Positions 2 to 11,789 of a stretch of 64,000 bases of DNA are shown piece by piece (the stretch's first letter is position 1; each line of letters starts with the position of its first letter). The notes beneath the pieces were generated by a model. The model was given only the letters and a program-made list of their open reading frames with translations, was not told the DNA's origin and made no database searches. The position numbers and the translations under genes are program-made. The stretch is from an uncultured Chloroflexota bacterium (lineage in GTDB: Bacteria > Chloroflexota > Dehalococcoidia > Lucifugimonadales > CAJXCD01), in assembly GCA_913051545.1 (NCBI GenBank), contig CAJXCD010000002.1, forward strand, positions 152,220-216,219, in the 5' to 3' direction.

Positions 2-694
2 AACGTGCCGTTTATGGCCGGCTCGTCTTTGCCAGTTACTAGCCGAACTCCCGAATTGGAACATGAGATTGGCACTGATATACAGGCGGCCCTATCTATG
101 GGTCATTTTAATTCTTACGTGAATGGACTTGAGTCTTACGGTTTTCACGGTTTAGAAGCATTGCAGTGTATGGTTGAACGTCGTTATGGAGGAGAAACAG
201 GAGTATCATCTGTGCATTGTATAGAGGGTAAAGAAGTGTGGGAAGCAGGAGAATCTGGGTTGTGGCCTCGAGATTTAGCTGATGAAGTGGAATTACGTAT
301 ACAGGATAGATCATCAGGTAGCATAGAAGATAATTGTGTTAATCCTGCTGTATTCATGATCGAATATTTGGATGGATTTAAAGCTGCGACCTTGATGCTG
401 GATGGTCATCTCAAAGGTTTTGGTTATTCGGCACGTGTTAACGATGAAATAGTTAGCACTGGTTTTAATCAAAACTATTCTCGGCATGAATCTTTTACTT
501 ATCAATGTCTCAATTTAGAGAAAATGTTTTTAACAGGTCAACCTCAATATCCAGTAGAACGTACGCTGCTGGTTAGTGGGATGATGGATGGGTTGATGGA
601 GTCCAGATTTCGAGGGCATGTACCTGTTGAAACTCCTCATCTGAATATCGAGTATTCTCCACCGGAAGATATACCTATTAGGCCATCGGGATAG
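2..694 (+). CDS. conserved hypothetical protein, C-terminal part (5' end outside window)
   Basis: The reading frame is open to the window edge (track ORF 5..694, stop TAG 692-694). It is long and not overlapped by a better ORF. I cannot name any motif with confidence. Confidence 0.5.
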   Translation, partial: NVPFMAGSSLPVTSRTPELEHEIGTDIQAALSMGHFNSYVNGLESYGFHGLEALQCMVERRYGGETGVSSVHCIEGKEVWEAGESGLWPRDLADEVELRIQDRSSGSIEDNCVNPAVFMIEYLDGFKAATLMLDGHLKGFGYSARVNDEIVSTGFNQNYSRHESFTYQCLNLEKMFLTGQPQYPVERTLLVSGMMDGLMESRFRGHVPVETPHLNIEYSPPEDIPIRPSG

Positions 695-710: not shown

Positions 711-1547
711 CTATATGTAATTTCTAGGTTTGAATGGAAATTTTAGTCTTCGAATAAATCCGGGAGATTGTGACTTGGATGTTTCTTTTAACGGTTCCGG
801 TTTAGGAACAAAAGGTATTTTCATTAAAGCATAGAGTTTGTAAGCCTGTAAAAGAATCCTAATTTCGGTTAGCAATACAGTCCTGCTTATCTTCCAAAAG
901 GACAGAAAAAGATTCCAGTTGTTTAGAGGTATTTCATTAGCGATATAAGTTGTAGATATAACGCATTGTTCTTCTTGATAAAGATTAATTTGTATTTCCA
1001 TTCCAGAGTCAGAATACGAAAATTTGAAAGTGTAATTGTCCTTTCTTTCAATGAATGGTGAAACGTGGAACCGTTTTTTATGAGTGAACTCAGTAAGACC
1101 AGAGTCGAAGTCATTGCCTGAATGAAGAAAATAGATATGTGATTCGCCATACGTATTACTTACTTCCACAGCAGCAGCTAGAACTCTTCCTGTATCACTA
1201 ACTCGGAAAAAGAATGAAGCAGGATTAAAAGAGTATCCAAGTAGAGAGGGCGTTGTTATTAGTAACATAGAGTCAGAGTCAGAGAAACTGTGTGATGATC
1301 CGAAAAGGTCAGCAATTTTTTTTATGATGCTTCTTTTTGAAGCGTCGATATATAACCAGTCTTTTATAGAAAATAGTCCGAACTTGTTGTGAGATATTAA
1401 GTAAGGTAGGTGATCTGATTTTGATAAGTCATCTAGGTCTAAAAGTAGCATGCAGTGATTGTAAGTAAAGCTATGTACTTTTGGTACAAAACGTGTGTGA
1501 TTTAATTTGCCTGTGAGTATTGATGATTTCAAACGATTGCCTGTCAA
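711..1547 (-). CDS. DUF1365 family protein (lipid-modification cluster member)
   Basis: The N-terminus LTGKLNHTRFVPKVHSFTYNHCMLLLDLDDL matches the DUF1365 pattern (G.v.H.R..P..H.F.Y....LDLDEL). It overlaps the upstream FAD oxidoreductase gene by 4 nt, which suggests translational coupling. Confidence 0.8.
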   Translation of the reverse strand: MTGNRLKSSILTGKLNHTRFVPKVHSFTYNHCMLLLDLDDLSKSDHLPYLISHNKFGLFSIKDWLYIDASKRSIIKKIADLFGSSHSFSDSDSMLLITTPSLLGYSFNPASFFFRVSDTGRVLAAAVEVSNTYGESHIYFLHSGNDFDSGLTEFTHKKRFHVSPFIERKDNYTFKFSYSDSGMEIQINLYQEEQCVISTTYIANEIPLNNWNLFLSFWKISRTVLLTEIRILLQAYKLYALMKIPFVPKPEPLKETSKSQSPGFIRRLKFPFKPRNYI

Positions 1548-2791
1548 AACTTTCCTATGGTGTCGGCGACCATTTTCCCGGAAACGAATGCGTCTTCATG
1601 AAAGCCATATCCAAAATAGGAGCCACAAAAGCGAATCGTATTGTATTGATTCAGAACTTTAAAATTGTTGTAGTTAAGTGTTTGATCGTGATTAAGTATT
1701 GGGTGATTATATTTAGTTTTGTATAGTGTATTTTCTTCGGATGGATTTGGATATGGATTAATCGTCACAAAAAATTCGGAACTTGTTTGGAGTTGTTGTA
1801 GGCGGTTCATGTAGTATGTTGTGAATGAGTGAGGGCCAGAATGAGTATCTACATTTATCACATTCCATGACGCCCACACTCTCTTGTTATTGGGCATTAA
1901 AGACTTATCGATATGTAGGAAGGCGTCGTTTTCAGAATACTCATATGTGGATAATATATCTGATAACCTTTCAGGAAAATGTCTAGTAATCTTTAGGGCC
2001 TCATCAGCGTGAGTAGCAATAATTGCTACGTCGAACTCTTGTTCTTCTAGCGCTGCAGATTCTATAACGGCTTTTTCATTTATCGATTTAACGGAAGTTA
2101 CATCAACATTAGTGTAAATTCGACCTCGGAAAATTGATGAAAATTGGTTTATGTAATTCCTGCTAGCTCCTCGTATAGTGAGCCACTGCGGTCGATTCTT
2201 GATATTCAACAACCCGTGATTAGAGAAAAACTGCATGAATGTTGAGGCTGGTATATGTGCAGCATATTTTCCGTCACATGACCAAATAGCAGATGCTATT
2301 GGTACGAAGTAGTTATTTATGATATCTAAGGGGCAACCTATTTTGGTTAGTAAGTCGACGATATTTATCCCGACACTTAGGTGTTCACCTGAATGTTTTT
2401 CCAATAGCTTGGAGTATTTGTATATATTAAATAGGCGGTGAATATGGCTTGCAGATGTTATAGATTTCAGGCTTGGGAAGAGCCCACCTATTGTTCCAGC
2501 ATACTGTATTGCTTTCGACATGTTGGTGTAGGAAAAAGACATGTCTGACCGGTGATTTTCCACGTTGAGTTCCTGTAAAAAATGAAAGAAATTAGGATAA
2601 TTTCTTTCGTTGTAAACAATAAAGCCGGTATCTATGGATACTGTATTACCTGCAGGGTCTTGGGTTGTGATGGTATTTGAGTGTCCGCCAATGACGCTTC
2701 TTTTTTCTATCAGTGTGACTTCGTGTTTATTGTGTAAGTGGTAAGCGGCAGATATTCCAGATATTCCGGCTCCTACAACGGCTATACGCAT
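1544..2791 (-). CDS. NAD/FAD-binding oxidoreductase, COG2907 / amine-oxidase-like
   Basis: N-terminal Rossmann motif MRIAVVGAGISGISAAYHL...EVTLIEKRSVIGGH, followed by DTGFIVYNERNYPNFFHFL, typical of COG2907 proteins. It sits next to DUF1365 and CFA-synthase genes, the conserved arrangement. Confidence 0.8.
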   Translation of the reverse strand: MRIAVVGAGISGISAAYHLHNKHEVTLIEKRSVIGGHSNTITTQDPAGNTVSIDTGFIVYNERNYPNFFHFLQELNVENHRSDMSFSYTNMSKAIQYAGTIGGLFPSLKSITSASHIHRLFNIYKYSKLLEKHSGEHLSVGINIVDLLTKIGCPLDIINNYFVPIASAIWSCDGKYAAHIPASTFMQFFSNHGLLNIKNRPQWLTIRGASRNYINQFSSIFRGRIYTNVDVTSVKSINEKAVIESAALEEQEFDVAIIATHADEALKITRHFPERLSDILSTYEYSENDAFLHIDKSLMPNNKRVWASWNVINVDTHSGPHSFTTYYMNRLQQLQTSSEFFVTINPYPNPSEENTLYKTKYNHPILNHDQTLNYNNFKVLNQYNTIRFCGSYFGYGFHEDAFVSGKMVADTIGKF

Positions 2792-2796
2792 TTTGG

Positions 2797-3891
2797 TCAG
2801 ATGTCCTGGTTTTTGAATAGGTAATTCATTAGATGCCAGTCATTACCTTCGTTATATTTGAATAGTTCTGAACAAGCTAGTAGAAACAGTTTATATCTAT
2901 TTATTAACACCATTGGATGGGTAGGGTGATTGGATTTTTGTATCTTACGGACTAGATTTGATTTATTTGATTCTAGAGTGTTAAGCCAAGCCTCTAGTGT
3001 TAGATGATAGTTGATACCAGACTCAGTCCACGATTTTATCATTGATAGAGGTGAAGGGATATCTTTGTAAAATCCGTCATATGGCATCATTCCGCCAGTG
3101 AAAAAATGACGCGATAACCAGGAGTGTTCAATGTCATCAAACATGTGAGGATGCGTCTTATGTGAGAATACCTGTATAAATAATTTCCCATTTGGATTTA
3201 GCCAATTTGAAACATTTCCCATTAGCTGTTTCGTATTTCTAGTGTGTTCAAACATTTCTATCGATATAATCCTGTCAAACTTCTTAGTTATATCAAGTTT
3301 GTTAATGTCACACTTTATGACTCTCAAATTCTCTATGTTCCTCTTATTGCTGACCGACTCAATGTATTCCTTTTGCGTGGAAGAATTGGTTACAGATGTT
3401 ACCTGAGAGTCGTGATATTTCTCTGCTAGATATAGAGACATAGAGCCCCACCCTGCACCTATATCCAGAATCTTTTGGTCATTATGTATATCAGCTCGCG
3501 ATTCATAAGTGGCTAATGTTTTGTCGTCCGCATCATCAAGATCTTGGCAGTTATCATTCCAATAAGATCCACTGTATTTCATGCGAGTGCCTAATATTGT
3601 TTTGAAAAATTCTGTGGGTACTTCATAGTGTTGAAGATTAGCCTCGTCAGTATTTATTGCTAAATGTCCGGTGGTACATTTGTTTCTGAAAATCGATCTG
3701 ATACTTTCGATTTGATCAGCGTTAAGCCTAGAGATTTTACGGGCATACTTTGTGATGCTTAGCTTGACTAAAAGACGCATTAAGGCATTAGGTAACAACC
3801 AGTTGTCTATTACAGGTTCATACCACATTTGCTGATTTCCTAAGTAACAGTTGAAGATCATCGATGTATTTTGCTGCGAATCCCCCTTCAC
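2797..3891 (-). CDS. SAM-dependent methyltransferase, cyclopropane-fatty-acyl-phospholipid/mycolic acid synthase (CMAS) family, paralogue 2
   Basis: SAM motif ILDIGAGWGSMSLYLAEKY, FDRIISIEMFEH, and the C-terminal YKLFLLACSELF pattern of CMAS enzymes. The annotated start overlaps the upstream gene by 74 nt. Alternative in-frame ATGs at 3861 and 3828 reduce that overlap. Confidence 0.8.
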   Translation of the reverse strand: MKGDSQQNTSMIFNCYLGNQQMWYEPVIDNWLLPNALMRLLVKLSITKYARKISRLNADQIESIRSIFRNKCTTGHLAINTDEANLQHYEVPTEFFKTILGTRMKYSGSYWNDNCQDLDDADDKTLATYESRADIHNDQKILDIGAGWGSMSLYLAEKYHDSQVTSVTNSSTQKEYIESVSNKRNIENLRVIKCDINKLDITKKFDRIISIEMFEHTRNTKQLMGNVSNWLNPNGKLFIQVFSHKTHPHMFDDIEHSWLSRHFFTGGMMPYDGFYKDIPSPLSMIKSWTESGINYHLTLEAWLNTLESNKSNLVRKIQKSNHPTHPMVLINRYKLFLLACSELFKYNEGNDWHLMNYLFKNQDI

Positions 3892-5026
3892 AATAACTGA
3901 AGTAGTAATAAAAACGTCTTATGTCTTTAGTAGAAAAGCCTAGGCGTAATATATCGTTTGATGAGTCTGTAAGATTGTTCCTCCATATTCGTAGGGTCTG
4001 TTCATAGTGTTTTCCTATAGATAAATTGTCTTGTATAACAAAATTATTTGCGTAGCATGCGGACTCAGTGATTGATGACATTGACGGCAACATCCCTCCA
4101 GGGAAAATGTATTTTTGGATATAATCGCAATTTTTTCTGTACGATTCATATCGTTCGTCTGGGATAGTGATGACCTGGATTGATAATGTCCCATCTTCAT
4201 TCAACAGAGAATCGCATTTTCGAAAGAATTCTTTAAGTCCGGTATGACCTACTGCCTCTAACATTTCCACGGAGTAGATTTGGTCAAAATTACCCTTTAG
4301 TGTTCTATAATCTTGGAAAAGAATCCTGATCCTATCGCTGAGGCCAAGTCTGTCTACGAGTTCAGTGCAGTATTCGAACTGGCTTTTTGATAAGGTGACC
4401 CCGGTACCCTCACAGTTGTATTCCTGCACTGCCTTGGTTAGCAGCCCTCCCCACCCGCATCCTATATCTAAAATGTGAGACTTGTCATGGATGTTGCTTT
4501 TAGAAAGAAGTAGCCTTATTTTTTCATCTTGCGCTTCAGACAGGTTAGTTTTATCAGTTTTAAATACAGCGCATGAATAAGTCATCGATGGGTCTAAGAT
4601 CTTTTGAAAAAATTCGTTACTGAGATCATAATGGTCTCTTATATTTCGTTTTGACCAGTATATGGAATTTTTTGATTTAATCTGCTGGACAAATTTTGAA
4701 TACAGTTTTACCGGCAGAAGATTACCGATTGAAATATTGGTGCCGTTCAACCTGTTTTGAGAGAGTTGTTTGAATAAATTAGGTAGGTCATTGCAATTCC
4801 ATTTTTCATTTAAATAGGCCTTTGCAAAACCAAGATCGTAACCTGTTGCTAAATCTACGAAAAAAGACCAATCTAGAACTTCCATATTTGGGGTAAGCGC
4901 GTCTTGTTTTCCCGAGAGGTGTATTTGACGTTTATCTGGAAGTGTTATTGAGGCGTTAAGACCTTTAAAATGCTTTATGACGCTTTTATAAATTAGTTTT
5001 CCGAGCGCTTTGGAGAAGAATTTCAA
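3818..5026 (-). CDS. cfa: cyclopropane-fatty-acyl-phospholipid synthase-like SAM methyltransferase, paralogue 1
   Basis: It aligns by eye with E. coli Cfa: HYDLSNEFFQKILDPSMTYSCAVF, ILDIGCGWGGL, FDQIYSVEMLEAVGH, YIFPGGMLPS, FYYYFSYCEGGF. Confidence 0.85.
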   Translation of the reverse strand: MKFFSKALGKLIYKSVIKHFKGLNASITLPDKRQIHLSGKQDALTPNMEVLDWSFFVDLATGYDLGFAKAYLNEKWNCNDLPNLFKQLSQNRLNGTNISIGNLLPVKLYSKFVQQIKSKNSIYWSKRNIRDHYDLSNEFFQKILDPSMTYSCAVFKTDKTNLSEAQDEKIRLLLSKSNIHDKSHILDIGCGWGGLLTKAVQEYNCEGTGVTLSKSQFEYCTELVDRLGLSDRIRILFQDYRTLKGNFDQIYSVEMLEAVGHTGLKEFFRKCDSLLNEDGTLSIQVITIPDERYESYRKNCDYIQKYIFPGGMLPSMSSITESACYANNFVIQDNLSIGKHYEQTLRIWRNNLTDSSNDILRLGFSTKDIRRFYYYFSYCEGGFAAKYIDDLQLLLRKSANVV

Positions 5027-5084
5027 CTATCACCTCTATGTAATTAACAGTTTGGGAATATAACCCGTCTAGTTTCGGTAATGG

Positions 5085-6176
5085 TCAGTTAATTCCACTA
5101 CTTATTTTGCCCTCGGGTTTATGCAGTAAACCTTCAAGATGCATCTTTTTACTCGCCCAAGATTTAATTATCATTTTTAGGCGATACTCAGCATTTTCCA
5201 CCAAACTATTAGGGTTATGGATTTCTTCTGTTTTCAGGCCTATCTCATCCATAACGATTTCTCCGACTATTCCGTAACCACCGTTGATATGTTCAATGGC
5301 TTTTGAAAGAATATGATTTGGAAGGTAAGAAATGAAGTTTTGCTCACTTTTAGAAGCATAGGTGGTTAGTAGCTTACCCAAGCTTTTCCTGTCTCCCAAT
5401 ACTTCGTATATATGTTTAATAATTCTGTGGAGTAATTCAGTTACGTTGCCATTCATTTTGGGTAGCCATTCCTGCGTTTTAGCTTCTATGTGCTTAACAG
5501 GTGGAATATGGTTAGCGGGCATTTCAAAATTCATAGTTGCAAGGATGATCTCTTCTATCAGGGAAGGGTCTGATTCAAGCTGTATAGCGGTCATGTTCCG
5601 AAACTGTATTGTATGAAGAGCTTCTCTACCCTTAACTTTACTTACAAGCTTTGAAGCATCGCTTCCGGTTGGGAAGAATCCTCTTTGCAGCTCATACCAG
5701 TAATCAGTTACACATTCTTGTATTAGTCCGTATGTCGTGAGGCTTGTTGGATGGAACCCAGATGAATGACTTACGTGGTACTCTGACTGTTGTATCGCAT
5801 CTCTGATGCTTTCATCTAGTCTGTATTCATCTATTCCAAAATCCATAAGAATTGTTTTAAATGGCTGTGCGTGTCCCATCTCATCTGGTTCCCAGAAGTT
5901 CTTAACGTAGTTGGATAGCCAATGTGCGTTATGGTTTCTGGCTCCAGTCATGTACGTTTCAGAGTACTGGTCTGTTAAAGATTCTGTTATTAATGACAGC
6001 CTGAAAATATCTACGATTTCATCTTGTGTCATTTCGGTGTGCGAGGCTATTTTATCGAGCGATATTTTCTCTGCTGACAAATTCAATTCGCCCTGTGGTA
6101 TCGTCTGCAGCTTTGGGATTTGGTCCTCGACGTATTGTTCAAGAATCCGAGTGTGTACTGATCTTTTATCGTTCAT
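5085..6176 (-). CDS. ferritin-like di-iron protein, acyl-ACP desaturase-like
   Basis: Two E...EXXH units: LITESLTDQY ... WEPDEMGH and LIQECVTDYW ... KGREALH. These parallel the acyl-ACP desaturase pattern (MITEEALPTY ... AEENRHG; FQERAT ... DEKRHE). The assignment is at family level only. Confidence 0.5.
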   Translation of the reverse strand: MNDKRSVHTRILEQYVEDQIPKLQTIPQGELNLSAEKISLDKIASHTEMTQDEIVDIFRLSLITESLTDQYSETYMTGARNHNAHWLSNYVKNFWEPDEMGHAQPFKTILMDFGIDEYRLDESIRDAIQQSEYHVSHSSGFHPTSLTTYGLIQECVTDYWYELQRGFFPTGSDASKLVSKVKGREALHTIQFRNMTAIQLESDPSLIEEIILATMNFEMPANHIPPVKHIEAKTQEWLPKMNGNVTELLHRIIKHIYEVLGDRKSLGKLLTTYASKSEQNFISYLPNHILSKAIEHINGGYGIVGEIVMDEIGLKTEEIHNPNSLVENAEYRLKMIIKSWASKKMHLEGLLHKPEGKISSGIN

Positions 6177-6192
6177 TATTAAGATATAAATT

Positions 6193-6732
6193 CTACAAAT
6201 TAAACTTTGGGAATTTAGAGACCCAGATTATTCCATCCAGAACAAGACAATGAAGTGTAATGTAGGTTAGTCCTGTTAGGACGAGGTATTTATGGAATAG
6301 CGAAGTGTCCTTCGCTATATATATATAGAAAACCACTACAGTCAGTGAAACTAATGACAGGGCCGTTATCCATAGAGAGCTAACAGTAACAAACCACCAT
6401 AAAGGTTGCTGGGTTTTTATATAGGCGATAGTTGCAGGCATCCAAAAAGTAGCAGAGATCAGGAAAAAAGCGCATATAATACCCAATGTATAAGTACCTA
6501 AGAAGTCAGAGAATACGTCAGCATATTTAGATATTACAGAAAAGCAGAAAGCGATATATCCGATCGCAGCAGGTAACATTGATACTGTAAAGATCGTTTT
6601 CCACGATCCTTCCACTCCTCCCCATAATGCCGCCCTGGACTCAGGATATAGTGCTATGCAGATTGCATAACTAGAAAGTACTGAAATCCCCCCTAATATA
6701 TTTACAAGAACAAAAACCTGCGTACCGGACAT
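6193..6732 (-). CDS. polytopic integral membrane protein, unknown function
   Basis: 179 aa, almost entirely hydrophobic, with about 6 predicted TM spans. An AGGAGA RBS lies upstream of the ATG. It is the first gene of the minus-strand lipid operon. Confidence 0.6.
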   Translation of the reverse strand: MSGTQVFVLVNILGGISVLSSYAICIALYPESRAALWGGVEGSWKTIFTVSMLPAAIGYIAFCFSVISKYADVFSDFLGTYTLGIICAFFLISATFWMPATIAYIKTQQPLWWFVTVSSLWITALSLVSLTVVVFYIYIAKDTSLFHKYLVLTGLTYITLHCLVLDGIIWVSKFPKFNL

Positions 6733-6801
6733 TCGATTCTCCTAATTGGATACAAAGACGATACATATTCACGCAAGCGACGACTACCATACACTAATTA
6801 T

Positions 6802-6842
6802 TAATATAATACAATAATTATGACGGTAATTGTGTTATATTA
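6802..6842. promoter_or_regulatory. inverted repeat TAATATAATACAAT-N13-ATTGTGTTATATTA, candidate operator in a divergent promoter
   Basis: The arms 6802-6815 and 6829-6842 are reverse complements at 13 of 14 positions. The repeat lies in the ~190-nt region between the divergent starts at 6732 (-) and 6924 (+). The background is AT-rich, so a chance match is possible. Confidence 0.35.
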
Positions 6843-6923
6843 CAACATGATGGTTTATAGTGTTGACACTGGGGCACATATTAAAGGACGTAAATAAGTT
6901 TTCTGGTGGTCAGGTTTTTGAAC

Positions 6924-8381
6924 ATGAAAATATTTATTACAGGAGCTACAGGGTTCATAGGTCGGGCACTAGTGGCCCATTTTCTTTCTAAAGGATATTT
7001 GATTACCGCTTGGACCCGGGATGTATCCAGAGCCAGGGACATGTTGGGGGAAGGAGTCCATCTAGTTCCAATAGATGTATCTGATGAAATTCTTCGTCAG
7101 GAGATCGAATCTTCAGACGCCGTGGTTAATCTAGCTGGTAGAGCGATAGTTGGGGTGAGGTGGAACAAAAATGTTAAAGAGGAAATTTATTCCAGCAGGG
7201 TAGGTCTGACGAAAAGGCTAGTCCGTGAGATGAAACTCTGCTCCAGGCAACCGAAGGTTTTGATATCTGCTAGTGCAGTAGGTTACTACGGTGACCGTGA
7301 TTGGGATGAACTGGTAGAACGGTCTTCCGGTGGCACAGGATTTTTGTCTGATTTATGCAGAGACTGGGAACAAGCAGCACTAGATGCAGAAGGTTCAGGC
7401 ACTAGGGTATGTACGATGCGATTTGGAATTGTGTTGGGGAGAGAGGAAGGTATATTAAAACAAGTAACTCCTTCATTTCAGTTAGGTTTGGGTACGTATA
7501 CCGGCACAGGAAAGCAATGTGTACCTTGGATACATATAGACGACATTGTACTAATTATAGGTTTGTGCTTAAGGAATGGTAGGATTTCGGGACCAGTTAA
7601 TTGTACCTCTCCAAATCCAGTTAGTTCATTAGTTTTTTCCAGAACCCTTGGTGCTTTGACTCCCGCTAAGATGTACATCGGTATCCCATCCGTATTACTT
7701 GGTTTACTTTTCGGAGAAGGTGGAAATGTTCTCACAAATAGTCAGAATGCTTTACCAGCTAAACTAATAGACCATGGATACGAGTTTGAATTTCCTAGCC
7801 TATACGATGCGCTTTGGGAGGAGTTTAATTATGAGCACGTTTCTATCAAAGAGGTAGAATCTGAAACTGCTGCAGCCAATCGTGATTCAGCTTTAGTTCC
7901 AAAAGGGCAGTATGAACTTCGAACAAATGTGGAATTAAATGCTCTCCCAAAAGAGACTTTTTCTTTCTTCTCCTCACCTCTTAATTTAGGTATCACAACA
8001 CCATCGTGGATGAGATTTCGAATAATAAATATGCCTGTACAGATTGATAAAGACTCTCGTATTTTATACAAAATCAGCCTTGGATTTGGAATTCTTAGTC
8101 TACGATGGACTACTCGAATATTAGACTGGAACCCAGACGAATCATTTACAGACGTTCAAGAAAAAGGTCCTTATAACCTGTGGTTCCATCAGCATCGTGT
8201 AATTGGGACAGATAAAGGGACTTCAATAATGGAAGATCGCGTAATTTACAGTGTTCCATTGGGTATATTAGGAAAATTAACACACATGGTATTTATCAAA
8301 GGGATTTTAATTCGTATATTCAACTACAGAAGAAAAGTCATCCGTCAGATATTTTGTTCTGAGGAAATCAGAAGGCAATAA
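6924..8381 (+). CDS. TIGR01777/YfcH-type NAD-dependent epimerase-like domain fused to a C-terminal SRPBCC (cyclase/dehydrase-like) ligand-binding domain
   Basis: MKIFITGATGFIGRALV Rossmann start, so I prefer ATG 6924 over the track GTG 6906. The C-terminal ~160 aa (W..RILDWNPDESFTDVQEKGPYNLWFHQHRV...MEDRVIYSVPLGILG) has the SRPBCC pattern often fused to YfcH homologues. Confidence 0.75.
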   Translation: MKIFITGATGFIGRALVAHFLSKGYLITAWTRDVSRARDMLGEGVHLVPIDVSDEILRQEIESSDAVVNLAGRAIVGVRWNKNVKEEIYSSRVGLTKRLVREMKLCSRQPKVLISASAVGYYGDRDWDELVERSSGGTGFLSDLCRDWEQAALDAEGSGTRVCTMRFGIVLGREEGILKQVTPSFQLGLGTYTGTGKQCVPWIHIDDIVLIIGLCLRNGRISGPVNCTSPNPVSSLVFSRTLGALTPAKMYIGIPSVLLGLLFGEGGNVLTNSQNALPAKLIDHGYEFEFPSLYDALWEEFNYEHVSIKEVESETAAANRDSALVPKGQYELRTNVELNALPKETFSFFSSPLNLGITTPSWMRFRIINMPVQIDKDSRILYKISLGFGILSLRWTTRILDWNPDESFTDVQEKGPYNLWFHQHRVIGTDKGTSIMEDRVIYSVPLGILGKLTHMVFIKGILIRIFNYRRKVIRQIFCSEEIRRQ

Positions 8382-8382
8382 C

Positions 8383-9270
8383 TTGGTTACTATAGAAAAT
8401 AGTCTCATTAATAAACTGACTAGACGTTTGACGGAGGGGCTCAGGTCAGGTGATCAAAGGCAGTGTCTATATGTGATCGATGAGGCCCTAGACAGTAGAT
8501 TTAGCCCTGGAATTATATACACGAATATCATCTCCCCCGCTAATGTGGAGATAGGAAATCTGTGGCACAAAGGACACATATCTATTGCACACGAACACGT
8601 ATCAACCCAGATTTCCATGAAATTACTTGACCATGTCTTGGATAAGTCCACTAATTCTTTACCAAATGGTCTAAGTGCGATAGTTACTTCTGTTCAGGGA
8701 GACGGACATTGCTTGGGGGCTAAGATGATGTCAAATTTACTGTCCTTAGACGGATGGAAGGTATTTTACTTGGGTGAAAATACTCCTGCAGATGATATTG
8801 CGAGGCTGGTAATTGAAAGTGGATCCAAGGTTGTAGCTCTTTCAGTAACACTGGATAGAAACATCAAAAATGCCATATTTTCTATAGAGGTTCTTAAAAA
8901 TTTAATCGATCCACCTTTAGTTGTATTGGGTGGAGCTGCTATATCTGAAAACTTACTTGAATTCAACGAAGCTTTGGTTGTGACAGATCCGGTTAGTGCA
9001 GTATATAAGTTAAGAAAAGAATTTTGCATAGGTGCTGAGCACCTAACATTGAATGGGCTGTTGGCTCAGATAGGCATCAAGGTATTTGAAAAGCGTAAAG
9101 CAATTGGTAGGAGTCAGGGGCAACTCGCGGAATTAGCCGGTGTAGATAAAGCTTATATTAGTCTAGTTGAAAACGGGAAACAGAATTTAACTATGGGACG
9201 ATTGCTTAGGATAGCACAGGCTCTGGATATTAGTGTATCTGATCTCTTAGAAACATCCAGTAATCTGTAG
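8383..9270 (+). CDS. cobalamin-binding (CarH-like B12 module) transcriptional regulator with C-terminal XRE-family HTH
   Basis: B12-binding cap with W61-x9-E71-H72 (NLWHKGHISIAHEH). Rossmann B12 domain with D107-x-H109-x-x-G112 (GDGHCLG) and LGENTPADDI. C-terminal HTH_3-like segment KRKAIGRSQGQLAELAGVDKAYISLVENGKQNLTMGRLLRIAQALDISVSDLL. The TTG start lies 1 nt after the upstream stop. Confidence 0.8.
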   Translation: MVTIENSLINKLTRRLTEGLRSGDQRQCLYVIDEALDSRFSPGIIYTNIISPANVEIGNLWHKGHISIAHEHVSTQISMKLLDHVLDKSTNSLPNGLSAIVTSVQGDGHCLGAKMMSNLLSLDGWKVFYLGENTPADDIARLVIESGSKVVALSVTLDRNIKNAIFSIEVLKNLIDPPLVVLGGAAISENLLEFNEALVVTDPVSAVYKLRKEFCIGAEHLTLNGLLAQIGIKVFEKRKAIGRSQGQLAELAGVDKAYISLVENGKQNLTMGRLLRIAQALDISVSDLLETSSNL

Positions 9271-9801: not shown

Positions 9802-10544
9802 TATTTGCCCCAAGTGGAGAAAAATTCTGGCCCCCATCGCCGAGCCAGTAGAATCGTTTTCCTGGAGTAAGAACCATATGGTGGAGCAGTTTGACTATCT
9901 ATCCATGATTCAGCAGCATCCAGGGTTGGTAATTCGGTTATGGAAACTTTGTGCCAGTCTGTTTGCGGACTCATCAAATGAAACTCTTCGAAACTCATGA
10001 GTCTATGGGTCTTTGCACTGCGGCTACAACGGTCTAAGTATTCACTATCTCCTCGATCCTCAGGACTAGTGAAGGAATGTTCAGGGAGTAACCTTGAAAA
10101 CATCAAAACAAGTACGCTATTTTTATCCTCACGTATATGAGGCAGATTGTTTGGATCAATGGTATTTTCTGTTTTAATAATTTTCCGTGGGTGTGTGACT
10201 AATTGAGAGTGATTGTGTTGGATTGAACGATATGCCAGATGGTATTCATAGTTTCCGTATGAACCGTAGGGTGGCGCCATTTCAGCTTTAATCCATTCTG
10301 TTGCACCGTCTAAGGTGGGGAATTCTATCACCCAGAATTTTTCCCATGATTTTTGAGGACCGAGCAACTTGTACCCTTGGATACCAATCAAGTCATACTT
10401 TTGAACAACTTCTAGCATAAGTTCGACATGAATTCTTTCATATTCCTTTTGGTCGGAACGTGAGACACGATGCCAAGTTGGTAGTCTCCCGCCTTTGAAT
10501 AATACGACCACACTGTTATTAATATTTTGTGTTTTGTCACTCAT
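9801..10544 (-). CDS. hypothetical protein with two tandem DUF1330-like (dimeric alpha/beta barrel-like) domains
   Basis: There is an internal duplication: FWVIEFPTLDGATEWIKAEMAPPYGSYGNYEY and VSITELPTLDAAESWIDSQTAPPYGSYSRKTI. The pattern resembles the DUF1330 C-terminus (vIEFPS.e.A..Wy.SpeY). Confidence 0.5.
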   Translation of the reverse strand: MSDKTQNINNSVVVLFKGGRLPTWHRVSRSDQKEYERIHVELMLEVVQKYDLIGIQGYKLLGPQKSWEKFWVIEFPTLDGATEWIKAEMAPPYGSYGNYEYHLAYRSIQHNHSQLVTHPRKIIKTENTIDPNNLPHIREDKNSVLVLMFSRLLPEHSFTSPEDRGDSEYLDRCSRSAKTHRLMSFEEFHLMSPQTDWHKVSITELPTLDAAESWIDSQTAPPYGSYSRKTILLARRWGPEFFSTWGK

Positions 10545-10565: not shown

Positions 10566-11789
10566 TTATATTTCAAATGGTGTTCTGGGAAATTGCATCA
10601 AGAATTCGGGGATGCCTTCTGTGACACGTATATGGTCACCTAGCGGCACAAACATTTTCCCCGATTCTGGGAGAGAAAACGCTGAGTGCAATACCAGAGT
10701 CATTCCTGGTTTCAAAATAGTATCGTTAGATTCAGATGGGATTGGAATTTCACTGTAGTCTAGACCTATTCCATGTCCTACTCGTCCTCCTTGTAGTTTC
10801 CATCCAAACTCTGAGGATTTTTCGCGTACCGCTTTTGCTATGTCACCGGCTCTTGCGCCAGGTCGTATTGCTTCTAGACCCGCATTCTGGGAGTCTCTGG
10901 CTATACCTGTAATATGTTCTAGGTAGTCCGATGTCTTTCCCATCGAACCAGTGCGATGGCCATGACTCCAGTAGCCTTTATATACAATGTAAGAACATAC
11001 AGAAATCATGTCTCCCTGATTTAGGACTCTTTCATGTGGTTTTATGTCTAGCCTAGTATCTTCCCAAGTTGTTGGGGGTCCTGAAGCCATCCAGTACTTA
11101 GCATGGTCAGCACCTTTTTCCCTAACGACTCTTTCCATTTCAGCAATTATTTCTATTCCAGTCATACCTGGTCTGGCAGTGGACAATAATGTTTCGAAAC
11201 CCAGATCGCCAAGATGTGCAGAATGTCGCATTAAGGCCATTTCATCTGGCTCTTTAGTGGATCTCATATCACCTATGATATCCCTGACACGTTTTAACCG
11301 CCCTCCGAATTCACATACTAGAGATTCATAGAATAGCACTGACATATTTTCAATCCCAACGACACCTACATCTCTATCATTAAGACCATTCAGATTTAGA
11401 ATTTCTTGGGTCGCGCCGCCAAATGTTCGTAGGCTGGATTTTAGATTGGGATCTTTGGTTTTTTCTACTGCGACGGCATTTGGATCAATTGATTGGACGA
11501 GAAGAATGTTTTCAATACACGAAGCATCTGGTATTTGATCTAACATGTAAGGAAGGCCGGCAACAAGTAAAGTCGGTGAACCTTCGGAGGGAACCACGAC
11601 GGCGGAATCAACTATTCGGTCATGATTAGCCCATCCTGACAAGTAGGATACGTGCCCTGTCTGACCCCATTTGTGTTCAGCAGCTGGGGAATATGCAAAC
11701 AGTGCACCGAGTCCTTCTTTCTTTAGGAATGATCGAACCTGAGAGTACCGATTCTCCAGTGTGTGAGATAGAGTCTTATCCGGCGGCAT
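10566..11789 (-). CDS. M24 family metallopeptidase (Xaa-Pro dipeptidase/creatinase-like)
   Basis: The C-terminal pita-bread domain carries metal-ligand context motifs: VCSYIVYKGYWSHGHRTG, GHGIGLDYSE, VLHSAF. The N-terminal domain is creatinase-like. Confidence 0.75.
   Translation of the reverse strand: MPPDKTLSHTLENRYSQVRSFLKKEGLGALFAYSPAAEHKWGQTGHVSYLSGWANHDRIVDSAVVVPSEGSPTLLVAGLPYMLDQIPDASCIENILLVQSIDPNAVAVEKTKDPNLKSSLRTFGGATQEILNLNGLNDRDVGVVGIENMSVLFYESLVCEFGGRLKRVRDIIGDMRSTKEPDEMALMRHSAHLGDLGFETLLSTARPGMTGIEIIAEMERVVREKGADHAKYWMASGPPTTWEDTRLDIKPHERVLNQGDMISVCSYIVYKGYWSHGHRTGSMGKTSDYLEHITGIARDSQNAGLEAIRPGARAGDIAKAVREKSSEFGWKLQGGRVGHGIGLDYSEIPIPSESNDTILKPGMTLVLHSAFSLPESGKMFVPLGDHIRVTEGIPEFLMQFPRTPFEI

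Follow-up and report, generated by a model that had tools for sequence, protein, structure and literature searches.

Introduction

Light sensing through vitamin B12 is experimentally established for the MerR-type CarH/LitR regulators, for AerR-type antirepressors and for the photocobilins; more complex putative B12 photoreceptor architectures are described in the literature as lacking functional characterisation. Class I CarH/LitR proteins, known from Thermus, Myxococcus and Bacillus, are adenosylcobalamin (AdoCbl)-dependent repressors of carotenoid genes. PhrR of Halomonas, said to have been described by Romine et al. in 2017, is reportedly a B12-dependent, light-sensitive MerR-type regulator with a predicted regulon of photolyase, folate and cfa-type lipid genes. 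Two marks identify CarH photoreceptors: the motif Wx9EH, a contact for the adenosyl group that CarA, which does not depend on B12, has lost, and in which the Trp is often followed by His; and the motif D/ExHx2G/P-x41-SxT/V-x22-27-GG, which includes the lower axial His (PMC9304148). The CarH operator is built from 11-bp direct repeats, nnnnTnnACAn, three or four of them in tandem (PMC9304148). Here we analyse a predicted regulator that joins a CarH-like cobalamin-binding module to an XRE-family helix-turn-helix (HTH), which we call B12-XRE, together with the divergent operon of lipid enzymes beside it, in a 64-kb stretch of DNA from an uncultured Dehalococcoidia bacterium (contig CAJXCD010000002.1, GenBank assembly GCA_913051545.1). 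We refer to this whole 64-kb stretch as the window, give positions in its coordinates, and use “cluster” for positions 711-9270.

The enzymes beside the regulator resemble a pathway that makes furan fatty acids in the sigma-E/ChrR regulon of Rhodobacter sphaeroides and R. palustris (RSP1091-1087, ufaM, fufM). There, UfaM (a CMAS methylase), UfaD (RSP1091, an FAD enzyme) and UfaO (RSP1090, a DUF1365 protein) turn phospholipid vaccenate into the furan fatty acid 9M5-FuFA (PMC7380195). UfaM produces 11Me-12t-18:1 and not a cyclopropane, UfaD is an NAD/FAD-binding phytoene-desaturase-like oxidoreductase, and UfaO is the O2-dependent enzyme that forms the furan ring; FufM (RPA0924), which shares 26% identity with UfaM, puts a second methyl group on 9M5-FuFA, and furan fatty acid synthesis does not require RSP1089 (402 aa), RSP1088 or RSP1087, encoded in the same operon (PMC7380195). 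Light induces a related cluster of ufaM, SDR and FAD-oxidoreductase genes in Pseudomonas through class II LitR proteins (PplR/PmlR) and a short LOV protein, ufaM rising 25-33-fold (PMC9758184). These LitR proteins are of MerR type without a functional B12 domain, receive their light signal from the separate LOV protein, and have the photolyase gene phrB in their cluster.

B12 photoreceptors and the control of this lipid module by light or singlet oxygen are thus already known. A preliminary description of this DNA, made from the sequence alone, had made light control of the module seem newer than it is; as a concept it was anticipated by Pseudomonas LitR/LOV and Rhodobacter sigma-E/ChrR, and what is new is the combination: a CarH-like sensor on an XRE output, in reversed domain order, with a palindromic site, in Dehalococcoidia/SAR202 and with putative control over a furan-type module to which an orphan di-iron enzyme and an SDR-START fusion belong. 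We propose that B12-XRE is a light-responsive repressor of a furan-type lipid operon, the two forming a self-contained photoprotection regulon of a surface-ocean bacterium. We consider the chances of this whole chain being right to be about even.

Results and Discussion

The regulator carries the CarH cobalamin motifs on an XRE output

The 295-aa regulator begins with a cobalamin-binding module made up of a four-helix bundle and a Rossmann domain (Pfam B12-binding_2, E = 6.4e-13; B12-binding, 7.8e-12) and ends with a Cro/C1-type HTH (HTH_3, PF01381, 5.3e-13). This HTH, at residues 236-288, scores over the 23-bit cut-off, belongs to the XRE family, and has C.AhdI and SinR among its PDB relatives. 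Pfam gave no match to a MerR domain in the protein, leaving HTH_3 as its sole DNA-binding domain. Within the cobalamin module we found Wx9EH as W61-HKGHISIAH-E71-H72, with a His (H62) after the Trp, and the classic B12 motif as D107-G-H109-CL-G112, x41, S154-V-T156, x26, G183-G184; the W, E, H and H align with those of Thermus thermophilus CarH. The regulator therefore has the complete set of CarH cobalamin-binding-domain motifs, and is not a strict member of the CarH/LitR family, by both the type and the position of its DNA-binding domain.

Among solved structures it is closest to the photocobilin SasPcob (8J2W/8J2X, 2e-18) and to CarH, and methionine synthase and corrinoid proteins are not among its best relatives. 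Photocobilins (SasPcob; AbDPcob, 8J2Y), the closest solved relatives of the B12 module and proven to respond to light, add a biliverdin-binding globin-like domain and control enzymes (PMC10979010), whereas the window regulator has no such domain and an HTH as its output. With CarH/LitR it shares the two-part cobalamin module, Wx9EH, the lower-ligand motif, photoprotection-gene neighbours and a candidate operator lying over promoter elements. In CarH, however, an N-terminal MerR winged helix binds DNA, in the opposite domain order to the C-terminal Cro/C1 HTH seen here; the candidate operator in the window is palindromic, and the neighbouring putative targets are lipid genes, not crt genes. The preliminary description had suggested that the protein may be a direct B12 photoreceptor, which agrees with the full motif set; light and B12 would be its predicted inputs.

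We scanned one genome per species for homologues and obtained 167 relatives. The best 80 of these, which we examined, come nearly all from Dehalococcoidia/SAR202, with a few from other phyla, and the highest identity among species-representative genomes was 47%. Eighteen SAR202/Dehalococcoidia genomes with regulators 38-47% identical to that of the window form what we call the close clade. Wx9EH is kept in all 18 close and in 51 of 57 distant homologues (69/75 overall), its W and E being invariant in the alignment and its H nearly so. In the literature searched we found no description of a B12-XRE fusion architecture, and no paper tying SAR202 to B12 photoreceptors or furan fatty acids.

The divergent operon contains a furan-fatty-acid module with additions

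Six co-directional minus-strand genes (6732 to 711) diverge from a plus-strand pair (6924 to 9270) that encodes a YfcH-SRPBCC fusion and the regulator (Table 1). The DUF1365 protein matches PF07103 over its full length (1.2e-55), the family to which UfaO belongs. The FAD oxidoreductase matches Amino_oxidase (2.9e-20) and NAD_binding_8 (5.9e-16) in Pfam, the Tara annotation of an identical protein is COG2907, and the end of its gene overlaps the DUF1365 start by 4 nt, the position directly before ufaO that is held by UfaD. The 402-aa methylase matches Pfam CMAS (2.4e-84) and has the CFA synthases 5z9o, 6bqc and 7qos as its best solved relatives. It scores 257 bits against the NCBIfam cfa equivalog, under the 400-bit cut-off; we know of no sequence rule that separates UfaM from Cfa. 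The second methylase also matches CMAS (1.9e-37), with plant coclaurine, pavine and tetrahydroprotoberberine N-methyltransferases as its best PDB relatives (6gkv, 6.5e-55, versus 2e-21 for CFA synthases), and is much nearer to these than to any CFA synthase or mycolic acid synthase. The two methylases are 28% identical to each other, similar to the distance between FufM and UfaM (26%).

As references we used plasmid-borne clusters of Rhizobium tropici and Burkholderia anthina, both of which adjoin genes for a sigma-70-family sigma factor and a ChrR-type anti-sigma factor. They contain an FAD oxidoreductase, DUF1365, a CFA-family methylase of about 405 aa, and a second methylase of 342-366 aa beside DUF1295. 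The window FAD oxidoreductase is 33-37% identical over its full length to the one preceding DUF1365 in these clusters, the DUF1365 proteins are 26-31% identical, the 402-aa methylase is 31-34% identical to the 405/410-aa methylase following DUF1365, and the second methylase (343 or 364 aa, depending on its start) is 33-40% identical to the 342/366-aa methylase. Judged by these alignments, the four core enzymes of the window are of the known furan-fatty-acid module type, at 26-40% identity to their ChrR-linked counterparts. Since homologous Rhizobium and Burkholderia modules lie beside sigma-E/ChrR genes, the idea of an exchanged regulatory input put forward in the preliminary description is sound. 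Its suggestion that two methylases indicate a more elaborate product did not survive, as ordinary ChrR-linked proteobacterial clusters have the same two types. We also considered a tuberculostearate-type (BfaA/BfaB) pathway, which the DUF1365 and COG2907 pair fits less well than it fits UfaD/UfaO. Furan fatty acids have been reported for Dehalococcoides phospholipids, as cited in the reference lists of other papers (White et al. 2005), which would make such lipids plausible in the class Dehalococcoidia.

The comparison with the sigma-E/ChrR regulon extends to an SDR and a small membrane protein, which accompany the FAD, DUF1365 and CMAS proteins in both (PMC7380195). Unlike that system, the window cluster has no adjacent sigma-E/ChrR genes and no DUF1295, its membrane protein is unrelated, and a YfcH-START fusion takes the place of a classical SDR. 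Three proteins come on top of the known module: the predicted di-iron protein, a membrane protein of unrelated family and the SDR-START fusion.

The predicted di-iron protein, of 363 aa, has no match in Pfam (even at E<=5), NCBIfam or PDB sequences (phmmer E>0.1). It belongs to a family of about 40 homologues, all in marine or SAR202-type assemblies, and a 26-sequence alignment of this family has six invariant candidate ligands, E65, E99, H102, E154, E185 and H188. As a sequence pattern this is the E/ExxH/E/ExxH set of ferritin-like di-iron enzymes, in a spacing that we take to be close to that of the castor desaturase. An AlphaFold2 model has a mean pLDDT of 78, exceeding 90 across residues 50-190. 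Foldseek placed the ivy and castor stearoyl-acyl carrier protein (ACP) desaturases first among PDB structures (2uw1, 4v0j, 1oq9, 1afr; TM 0.49-0.52, probability 1.0, E ~4e-3), followed by R2-like ligand-binding oxidases, a fold common also to aldehyde-deformylating oxygenases. These desaturases (castor 1AFR, ivy 2UW1) and the R2-like oxidases share the E...ExxH...E...ExxH arrangement at similar spacing and give the best folds, but there is no detectable sequence similarity to stearoyl-ACP desaturases and the TM score is just ~0.5. On its ligands and modelled fold, “desaturase-like di-iron protein” is a fair description of a protein that lies outside the desaturase sequence family (no PF03405).

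The YfcH fusion matches TIGR01777 (2.4e-86), Epimerase (1.7e-24) and DUF1731 (8.6e-13). Its C-terminal extension of about 180 residues has no Pfam (even at E<=5), NCBIfam or PDB sequence match. Homologues of the extension include free-standing 150-aa proteins annotated as SRPBCC, and 3 of 16 match Polyketide_cyc. Its AlphaFold2 model (pLDDT 85.5) has a beta-alpha-alpha-beta6-alpha helix-grip topology, and Foldseek returned 355 PDB matches at E<=1e-3 to START, PR-10 and PYL proteins. The extension is thus predicted from its modelled structure to be a START/SRPBCC fold, which confirms the fusion. Both the acyl-ACP-desaturase-like di-iron label and the YfcH-SRPBCC fusion of the preliminary description were accordingly right: the former through invariant ligands and fold, though invisible to sequence search, the latter through SRPBCC-annotated homologues and the helix-grip fold.

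The 179-aa membrane protein has about five hydrophobic segments and 272 representative homologues, a family without a Pfam entry. We found no match to the protein in Pfam (even at E<=5), NCBIfam or PDB, and searching 36 family members against Pfam gave scattered chance matches only. A profile of the family showed no similarity to DUF1295, DUF2177, DUF3429 or the 176-aa hypothetical protein of the proteobacterial clusters.

Regulator, fusion gene and lipid operon are linked within one clade

We tested linkage by tblastn of the eight window proteins against fetched loci, numbered with an L prefix. The YfcH-SRPBCC gene lies directly upstream of the regulator on the same strand in all 18 close-clade genomes, and the divergent lipid operon is present in 12 of the 15 with enough flank to judge. 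Ten of these 12 have the di-iron gene; L014 and L017 are without it. The eight-gene layout is complete in L001-3, L007, L008, L011, L013, L016, L018, L020, L021, L027 and L081, of which L001-3 are metagenome contigs; the contigs L004-6 have the regulator pair only. The closest relatives of all eight genes are in SAR202/Dehalococcoidia metagenome-assembled genomes (MAGs), at 39-57% identity, and because the layout recurs in independent genomes whose proteins are just 39-57% identical, the arrangement is not due to chance.

Linkage is therefore strong within one clade and tightest between the regulator and YfcH-SRPBCC, and the lipid operon is not an obligatory part of it. The conserved linkage of regulator and lipid genes expected by the preliminary description, which had named a neighbourhood comparison as its check, holds for the close clade (pair 18/18, operon 12/15), and does not hold where the operon was lost, where it occurs without the regulator (L095/L096), or among distant regulators, which stand beside unrelated genes.

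Two close-clade loci have insertions. In L016 an AhpC/TSA peroxiredoxin gene (7304-7783, minus strand) lies between the di-iron and membrane-protein genes. L017, which has no di-iron gene, has a 790-aa MMPL-family transporter (6128-8500) inserted between the palindrome-bearing spacer and YfcH-SRPBCC; despite this, the palindrome described below stays in the spacer shared with the lipid operon. Both insertions agree with, and lend some support to, a protective-lipid theme.

A palindrome is conserved in the divergent spacer

A 14-bp palindrome, TGTRYTATARTACA, occurs once, in the divergent spacer, in all 17 distinct orthologous loci, in lineages with protein identities of just 40-57%, and the spacer outside it is not alignable across lineages. 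A matrix of these sites reaches 19 bits or more at a single position in each ~20-kb locus; having been built from the same sites, it speaks for specificity and not for discovery. In the window the palindrome reads TGTGTTATATTACA and is separated by 98 nt from the start of the membrane-protein gene and by 79 nt from the ATG of YfcH. It holds a plus-strand extended -10-like element, TGnTATATT, and shares bases with TTGTAA, the -35-like hexamer of a promoter-like site on the minus strand (6845-6817). Our promoter and terminator scan yielded fewer promoter-like sites than shuffled sequence and is used here for position only.

An unbiased k-mer count gave the 8-mer ATAATACA in 12 of 17 spacers, against at most 6 in shuffles. 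In the window an extra half-site of this sequence lies within an inverted repeat of 14 nt (6802-6815 and 6829-6842, 93% complementary). Most SAR202 loci have such a half-site 6 nt ahead of the palindrome; in the window the gap is 17 nt. This layout of a 14-bp palindrome and one half-site differs from the tandem 11-bp direct repeats of a CarH-type operator. The outer TGT and ACA triplets of the palindrome are invariant and symmetric, and the symmetry reaches 18-20 bp in L016, L018 and L023. Such symmetric outer triplets argue, at the level of sequence, for a protein-binding site.

Distant-clade regulators (L036-L084; for example L037 at ~9946-9967, L060 and L067) have a different AT-rich palindrome, TATGTTGTATATTAATAACATA, with a spacing unlike that of TGTRYTATARTACA. 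It sits 20-80 nt upstream of the regulator start, in GC-rich Dehalococcoidia genomes. L044, L049 and L055 instead have a palindrome of the close-clade type ~100 nt upstream of the regulator. Palindromes upstream of distant-clade regulators fit autoregulation by the B12-XRE family.

Proposed mechanism

From the observed gene content, motifs, folds, synteny and palindrome conservation we infer cofactor binding, a light response, repression and a lipid product as follows. In the dark, the B12-XRE protein would bind AdoCbl via its CarH-like module and oligomerise, and the oligomer would occupy the palindrome (6831-6844) and the nearby half-site via the C-terminal XRE HTH. The occupied site would cover the plus-strand -10 and the minus-strand -35 and spacer, repressing both divergent operons. 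Light would photolyse the Co-C bond and the regulator would leave the DNA, upon which the autoregulated yfcH-SRPBCC-regulator operon and the six-gene lipid operon would be transcribed.

We model the chemistry on the R. sphaeroides/R. palustris pathway, acting on the acyl chains of membrane phospholipids. The Cfa/UfaM-like methylase would methylate a cis-monoene, the UfaD-like FAD enzyme would form a conjugated diene, and the UfaO-like DUF1365 protein would insert O2, closing the furan ring. The second methylase, like coclaurine N-methyltransferase (CNMT) in sequence, may add a second methyl group in a FufM-like role. The di-iron desaturase-like protein, an accessory that some relatives do without, would most probably supply or move the double bond, and the membrane protein and SDR-START fusion would have supporting roles, perhaps in lipid handling or reduction. 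The resulting methylated furan (or related) acyl chains would act as quenchers of radicals and of singlet oxygen.

This reading has a regulatory and a chemical half, and either could fail without the other. Beyond the window, we suggest tentatively, thinking it somewhat doubtful in its full extent, that B12-XRE proteins are an uncharacterised class of AdoCbl photoreceptor-repressors, set apart from CarH by domain order, XRE output and palindromic operators, in at least 167 species-level genomes, mainly of Dehalococcoidia, and that one SAR202-type branch uses them for light induction of methylated furan fatty acids, made with a new soluble di-iron desaturase-like family.

If this is true, a CarH-like module coupled to XRE would offer a second route, independent of the first, from B12 photochemistry to DNA binding, and its compact palindromic operator would interest developers of optogenetic tools. 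For SAR202/Dehalococcoidia, which are abundant in the ocean and uncultured, a concrete circuit responding to light would be known and an antioxidant lipid predicted, and one of the ocean's most abundant heterotroph groups would remodel its membrane in direct response to light. The locus also offers testable candidates for the missing step that forms the double bond and for accessory genes of the furan fatty acid pathway.

Alternative explanations

A number of observations count against this proposal. The lipid operon is missing from three of the 15 judgeable close-clade genomes (L012, L015 and L023), and short relics of the membrane-protein and di-iron genes are found in L004-L006 (7600-8420), L012 (~8262) and L015 (7492-8380), with the regulator pair and palindrome intact. 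To the regulator pair the lipid operon is thus dispensable. Conversely, L095/L096 (8001-13380) have an operon of di-iron, methylase, methylase, FAD and DUF1365 genes without the regulator, YfcH, the membrane protein or a clear palindrome. The window palindrome, moreover, is nearer the plus-strand promoter and contains its -10. All this would be expected if the regulator controlled its own operon only, the lipid operon being an independently expressed neighbour in some lineages. We consider this improbable: spacers are as short as 76-94 nt (L001), so that a bound oligomer would cover both promoters, SAR202 loci have the extra half-site over a minus-strand -10-like TATTAT, the window palindrome overlaps the -35-like hexamer on the minus strand, and the divergent layout is kept in 12 genomes.

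The neighbourhoods of more distant regulators bear on what the protein senses. At 62 such loci lipid genes are absent within 10 kb, except at L072, and the neighbours are a divergent zinc-dependent alcohol dehydrogenase (Zn-ADH; 15 loci), an AcrB-type RND pump (14), and, directly downstream of the regulator, CobS (10) and CobT/DBI_PRT (9); examples of these neighbours are at L028 11011-14115, L038 11003-11785, L037 11140-12225 and L041 8308-9426. Such neighbours point to a possible regulon for B12 homeostasis or detoxification in the distant branch, and with members beside cobS/cobT, RND pump and Zn-ADH genes the ancestral role could be B12 sensing. Some complete-locus genomes are labelled in ways that suggest an origin below the photic zone, namely L027 (a single-amplified genome, “505m”) and L010/L011/L081 (OSU_TB/BB trench MAGs), as far as labels alone can tell. 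The regulator might accordingly be a sensor of cobalamin availability whose DNA binding, in the presence or absence of B12, matches expression to cofactor supply, light having no physiological role. We think this quite unlikely. Wx9EH, the adenosyl-contacting mark that separates photoreceptor CarH from B12-independent CarA, is intact in the window and in most of the family; AdoCbl held through it is intrinsically photolabile; none of the eight genes of the locus uses or makes B12; and proteins identical to those of the window occur in Tara Oceans assemblies that include a surface (SRF) sample, which places the organism in surface water.

The family motif contains a perfect extended -10 (TGnTATAAT, conserved as TGYTATAAT), and part of the palindrome's conservation may be promoter conservation. 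The window copy is the single match in 64 kb against a chance expectation of 4.7 for the degenerate pattern; since the pattern is not rarer than chance, the argument for an operator rests on positional conservation and not on counts. The 14-mer could therefore be a strong extended -10 promoter only, with the regulator's operator, if any, elsewhere. To this we give little credence, as the invariant, symmetric TGT/ACA triplets reach beyond the -10 hexamer, with the extended symmetry seen in three loci, and a second, differently spaced palindrome accompanies distant regulators beside unrelated genes. Even with an operator at this position, an XRE domain on a palindrome differs from a MerR domain on direct repeats, and the oligomer and DNA geometry of CarH is not simply transferable to B12-XRE.

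The chemical half of the proposal has its own competitor, in which the product is not a furan but a cyclopropane, a mid-chain methyl-branched chain, or a methylated or oxidised non-acyl lipid, with the CNMT-like methylase and the di-iron enzyme working on another substrate. The 402-aa methylase falls under the cfa equivalog cut-off and its orthology to UfaM is unproven; RSP1089, the methylase encoded at the matching place in the R. sphaeroides operon, plays no part in making furan fatty acids; alkaloid N-methyltransferases are the nearest relatives of the second methylase; the di-iron fold is common also to R2-like oxidases and aldehyde-deformylating oxygenases; and DUF1365 chemistry is established for just two proteins. 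Against this, the translationally coupled UfaD-like/UfaO-like pair together with a CMAS methylase is the set sufficient for 9M5-FuFA (PMC7380195), and in proteobacteria these four enzymes together are associated with regulators that respond to singlet oxygen. Of the alternatives we weighed, a non-furan product is the strongest, although still rather unlikely; we retain the furan-type product within our proposal.

Locus features and surroundings

The layout in Table 1 is that of the preliminary description, whose six minus-strand genes, small gaps and overlaps, divergent pair and 1-nt gap are reproduced by the open reading frame (ORF) coordinates. Junctions in the minus-strand operon, from its 5' to its 3' end, are +16, +58, -11, +5 and -4 nt, and 1 nt separates the end of the YfcH fusion from the regulator start on the plus strand. 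In public gene calls the second methylase begins at 3828 (343 aa, giving the 11-nt overlap) and the YfcH fusion at ATG 6924 (485 aa), which makes the spacer 191 nt. Its described length of ~190 nt was therefore correct, while “AT-rich” applies just mildly: GC is 33.5% in the spacer, 38.5% in the cluster and 42% in the window (42.3% for 9271-64000). Cluster and remainder thus differ modestly in GC.

Table 1. Genes and control elements of the cluster, in window coordinates.
Feature	Position	Strand	Basis
DUF1365 protein, 278 aa, UfaO counterpart	711..1547	-	Pfam DUF1365, full length
FAD oxidoreductase, 415 aa, Amino_oxidase/COG2907 type, UfaD counterpart	1544..2791	-	Pfam
Second SAM methyltransferase, 343 aa, coclaurine-N-methyltransferase-like CMAS branch, candidate FufM-like	2797..3828 (ORF to 3891)	-	Pfam CMAS, PDB relatives
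Cfa/UfaM-type SAM methyltransferase, 402 aa	3818..5026	-	Pfam CMAS
Orphan soluble protein, 363 aa, predicted ferritin-like di-metal carboxylate enzyme	5085..6176	-	Ligands and fold
Polytopic membrane protein, 179 aa, first gene of the minus-strand operon	6193..6732	-	Hydrophobic segments
Divergent control region, 191 nt	6733..6923		Spacer sequence
Additional half-site ATAATACA	6806..6813		Repeat search
Candidate operator palindrome TGTGTTATATTACA (family consensus TGTRYTATARTACA)	6831..6844		Positional conservation
YfcH-type atypical SDR with C-terminal START/SRPBCC, 485 aa	6924..8381 (ORF opens GTG 6906)	+	TIGR01777, fold
B12-XRE regulator, 295 aa	8383..9270	+	Pfam B12-binding_2, B12-binding, HTH_3

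Rfam (gathering threshold) and tRNA scans of the whole 64 kb returned no family, no tRNA and no cobalamin riboswitch, and phrB was not seen among the genes flanking the cluster.

Elsewhere, the regulator-free operon of L095/L096 adjoins MetE-like and MsrB genes, and L093 has a solitary di-iron gene (8001-9083) beside an alpha/beta hydrolase. In L001-L003 a 147-aa protein without a Pfam match (10902-11345) begins 4 nt after the regulator and is followed by a convergent gene for PlsY, the glycerol-3-phosphate acyltransferase. The two occupy positions +1 and +2 in ~17 close-clade loci; neither follows the regulator in the window. Upstream of the cluster, positions 5-694 (plus strand) encode the C-terminal part of a 397-aa protein without a Pfam family, which extends upstream of the window, is convergent with the DUF1365 gene and ends 16 nt from it. 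Downstream of the cluster are genes for an M24 peptidase, SDRs, an aminoglycoside N-acetyltransferase-like protein and a GH172/DUF2961 protein.

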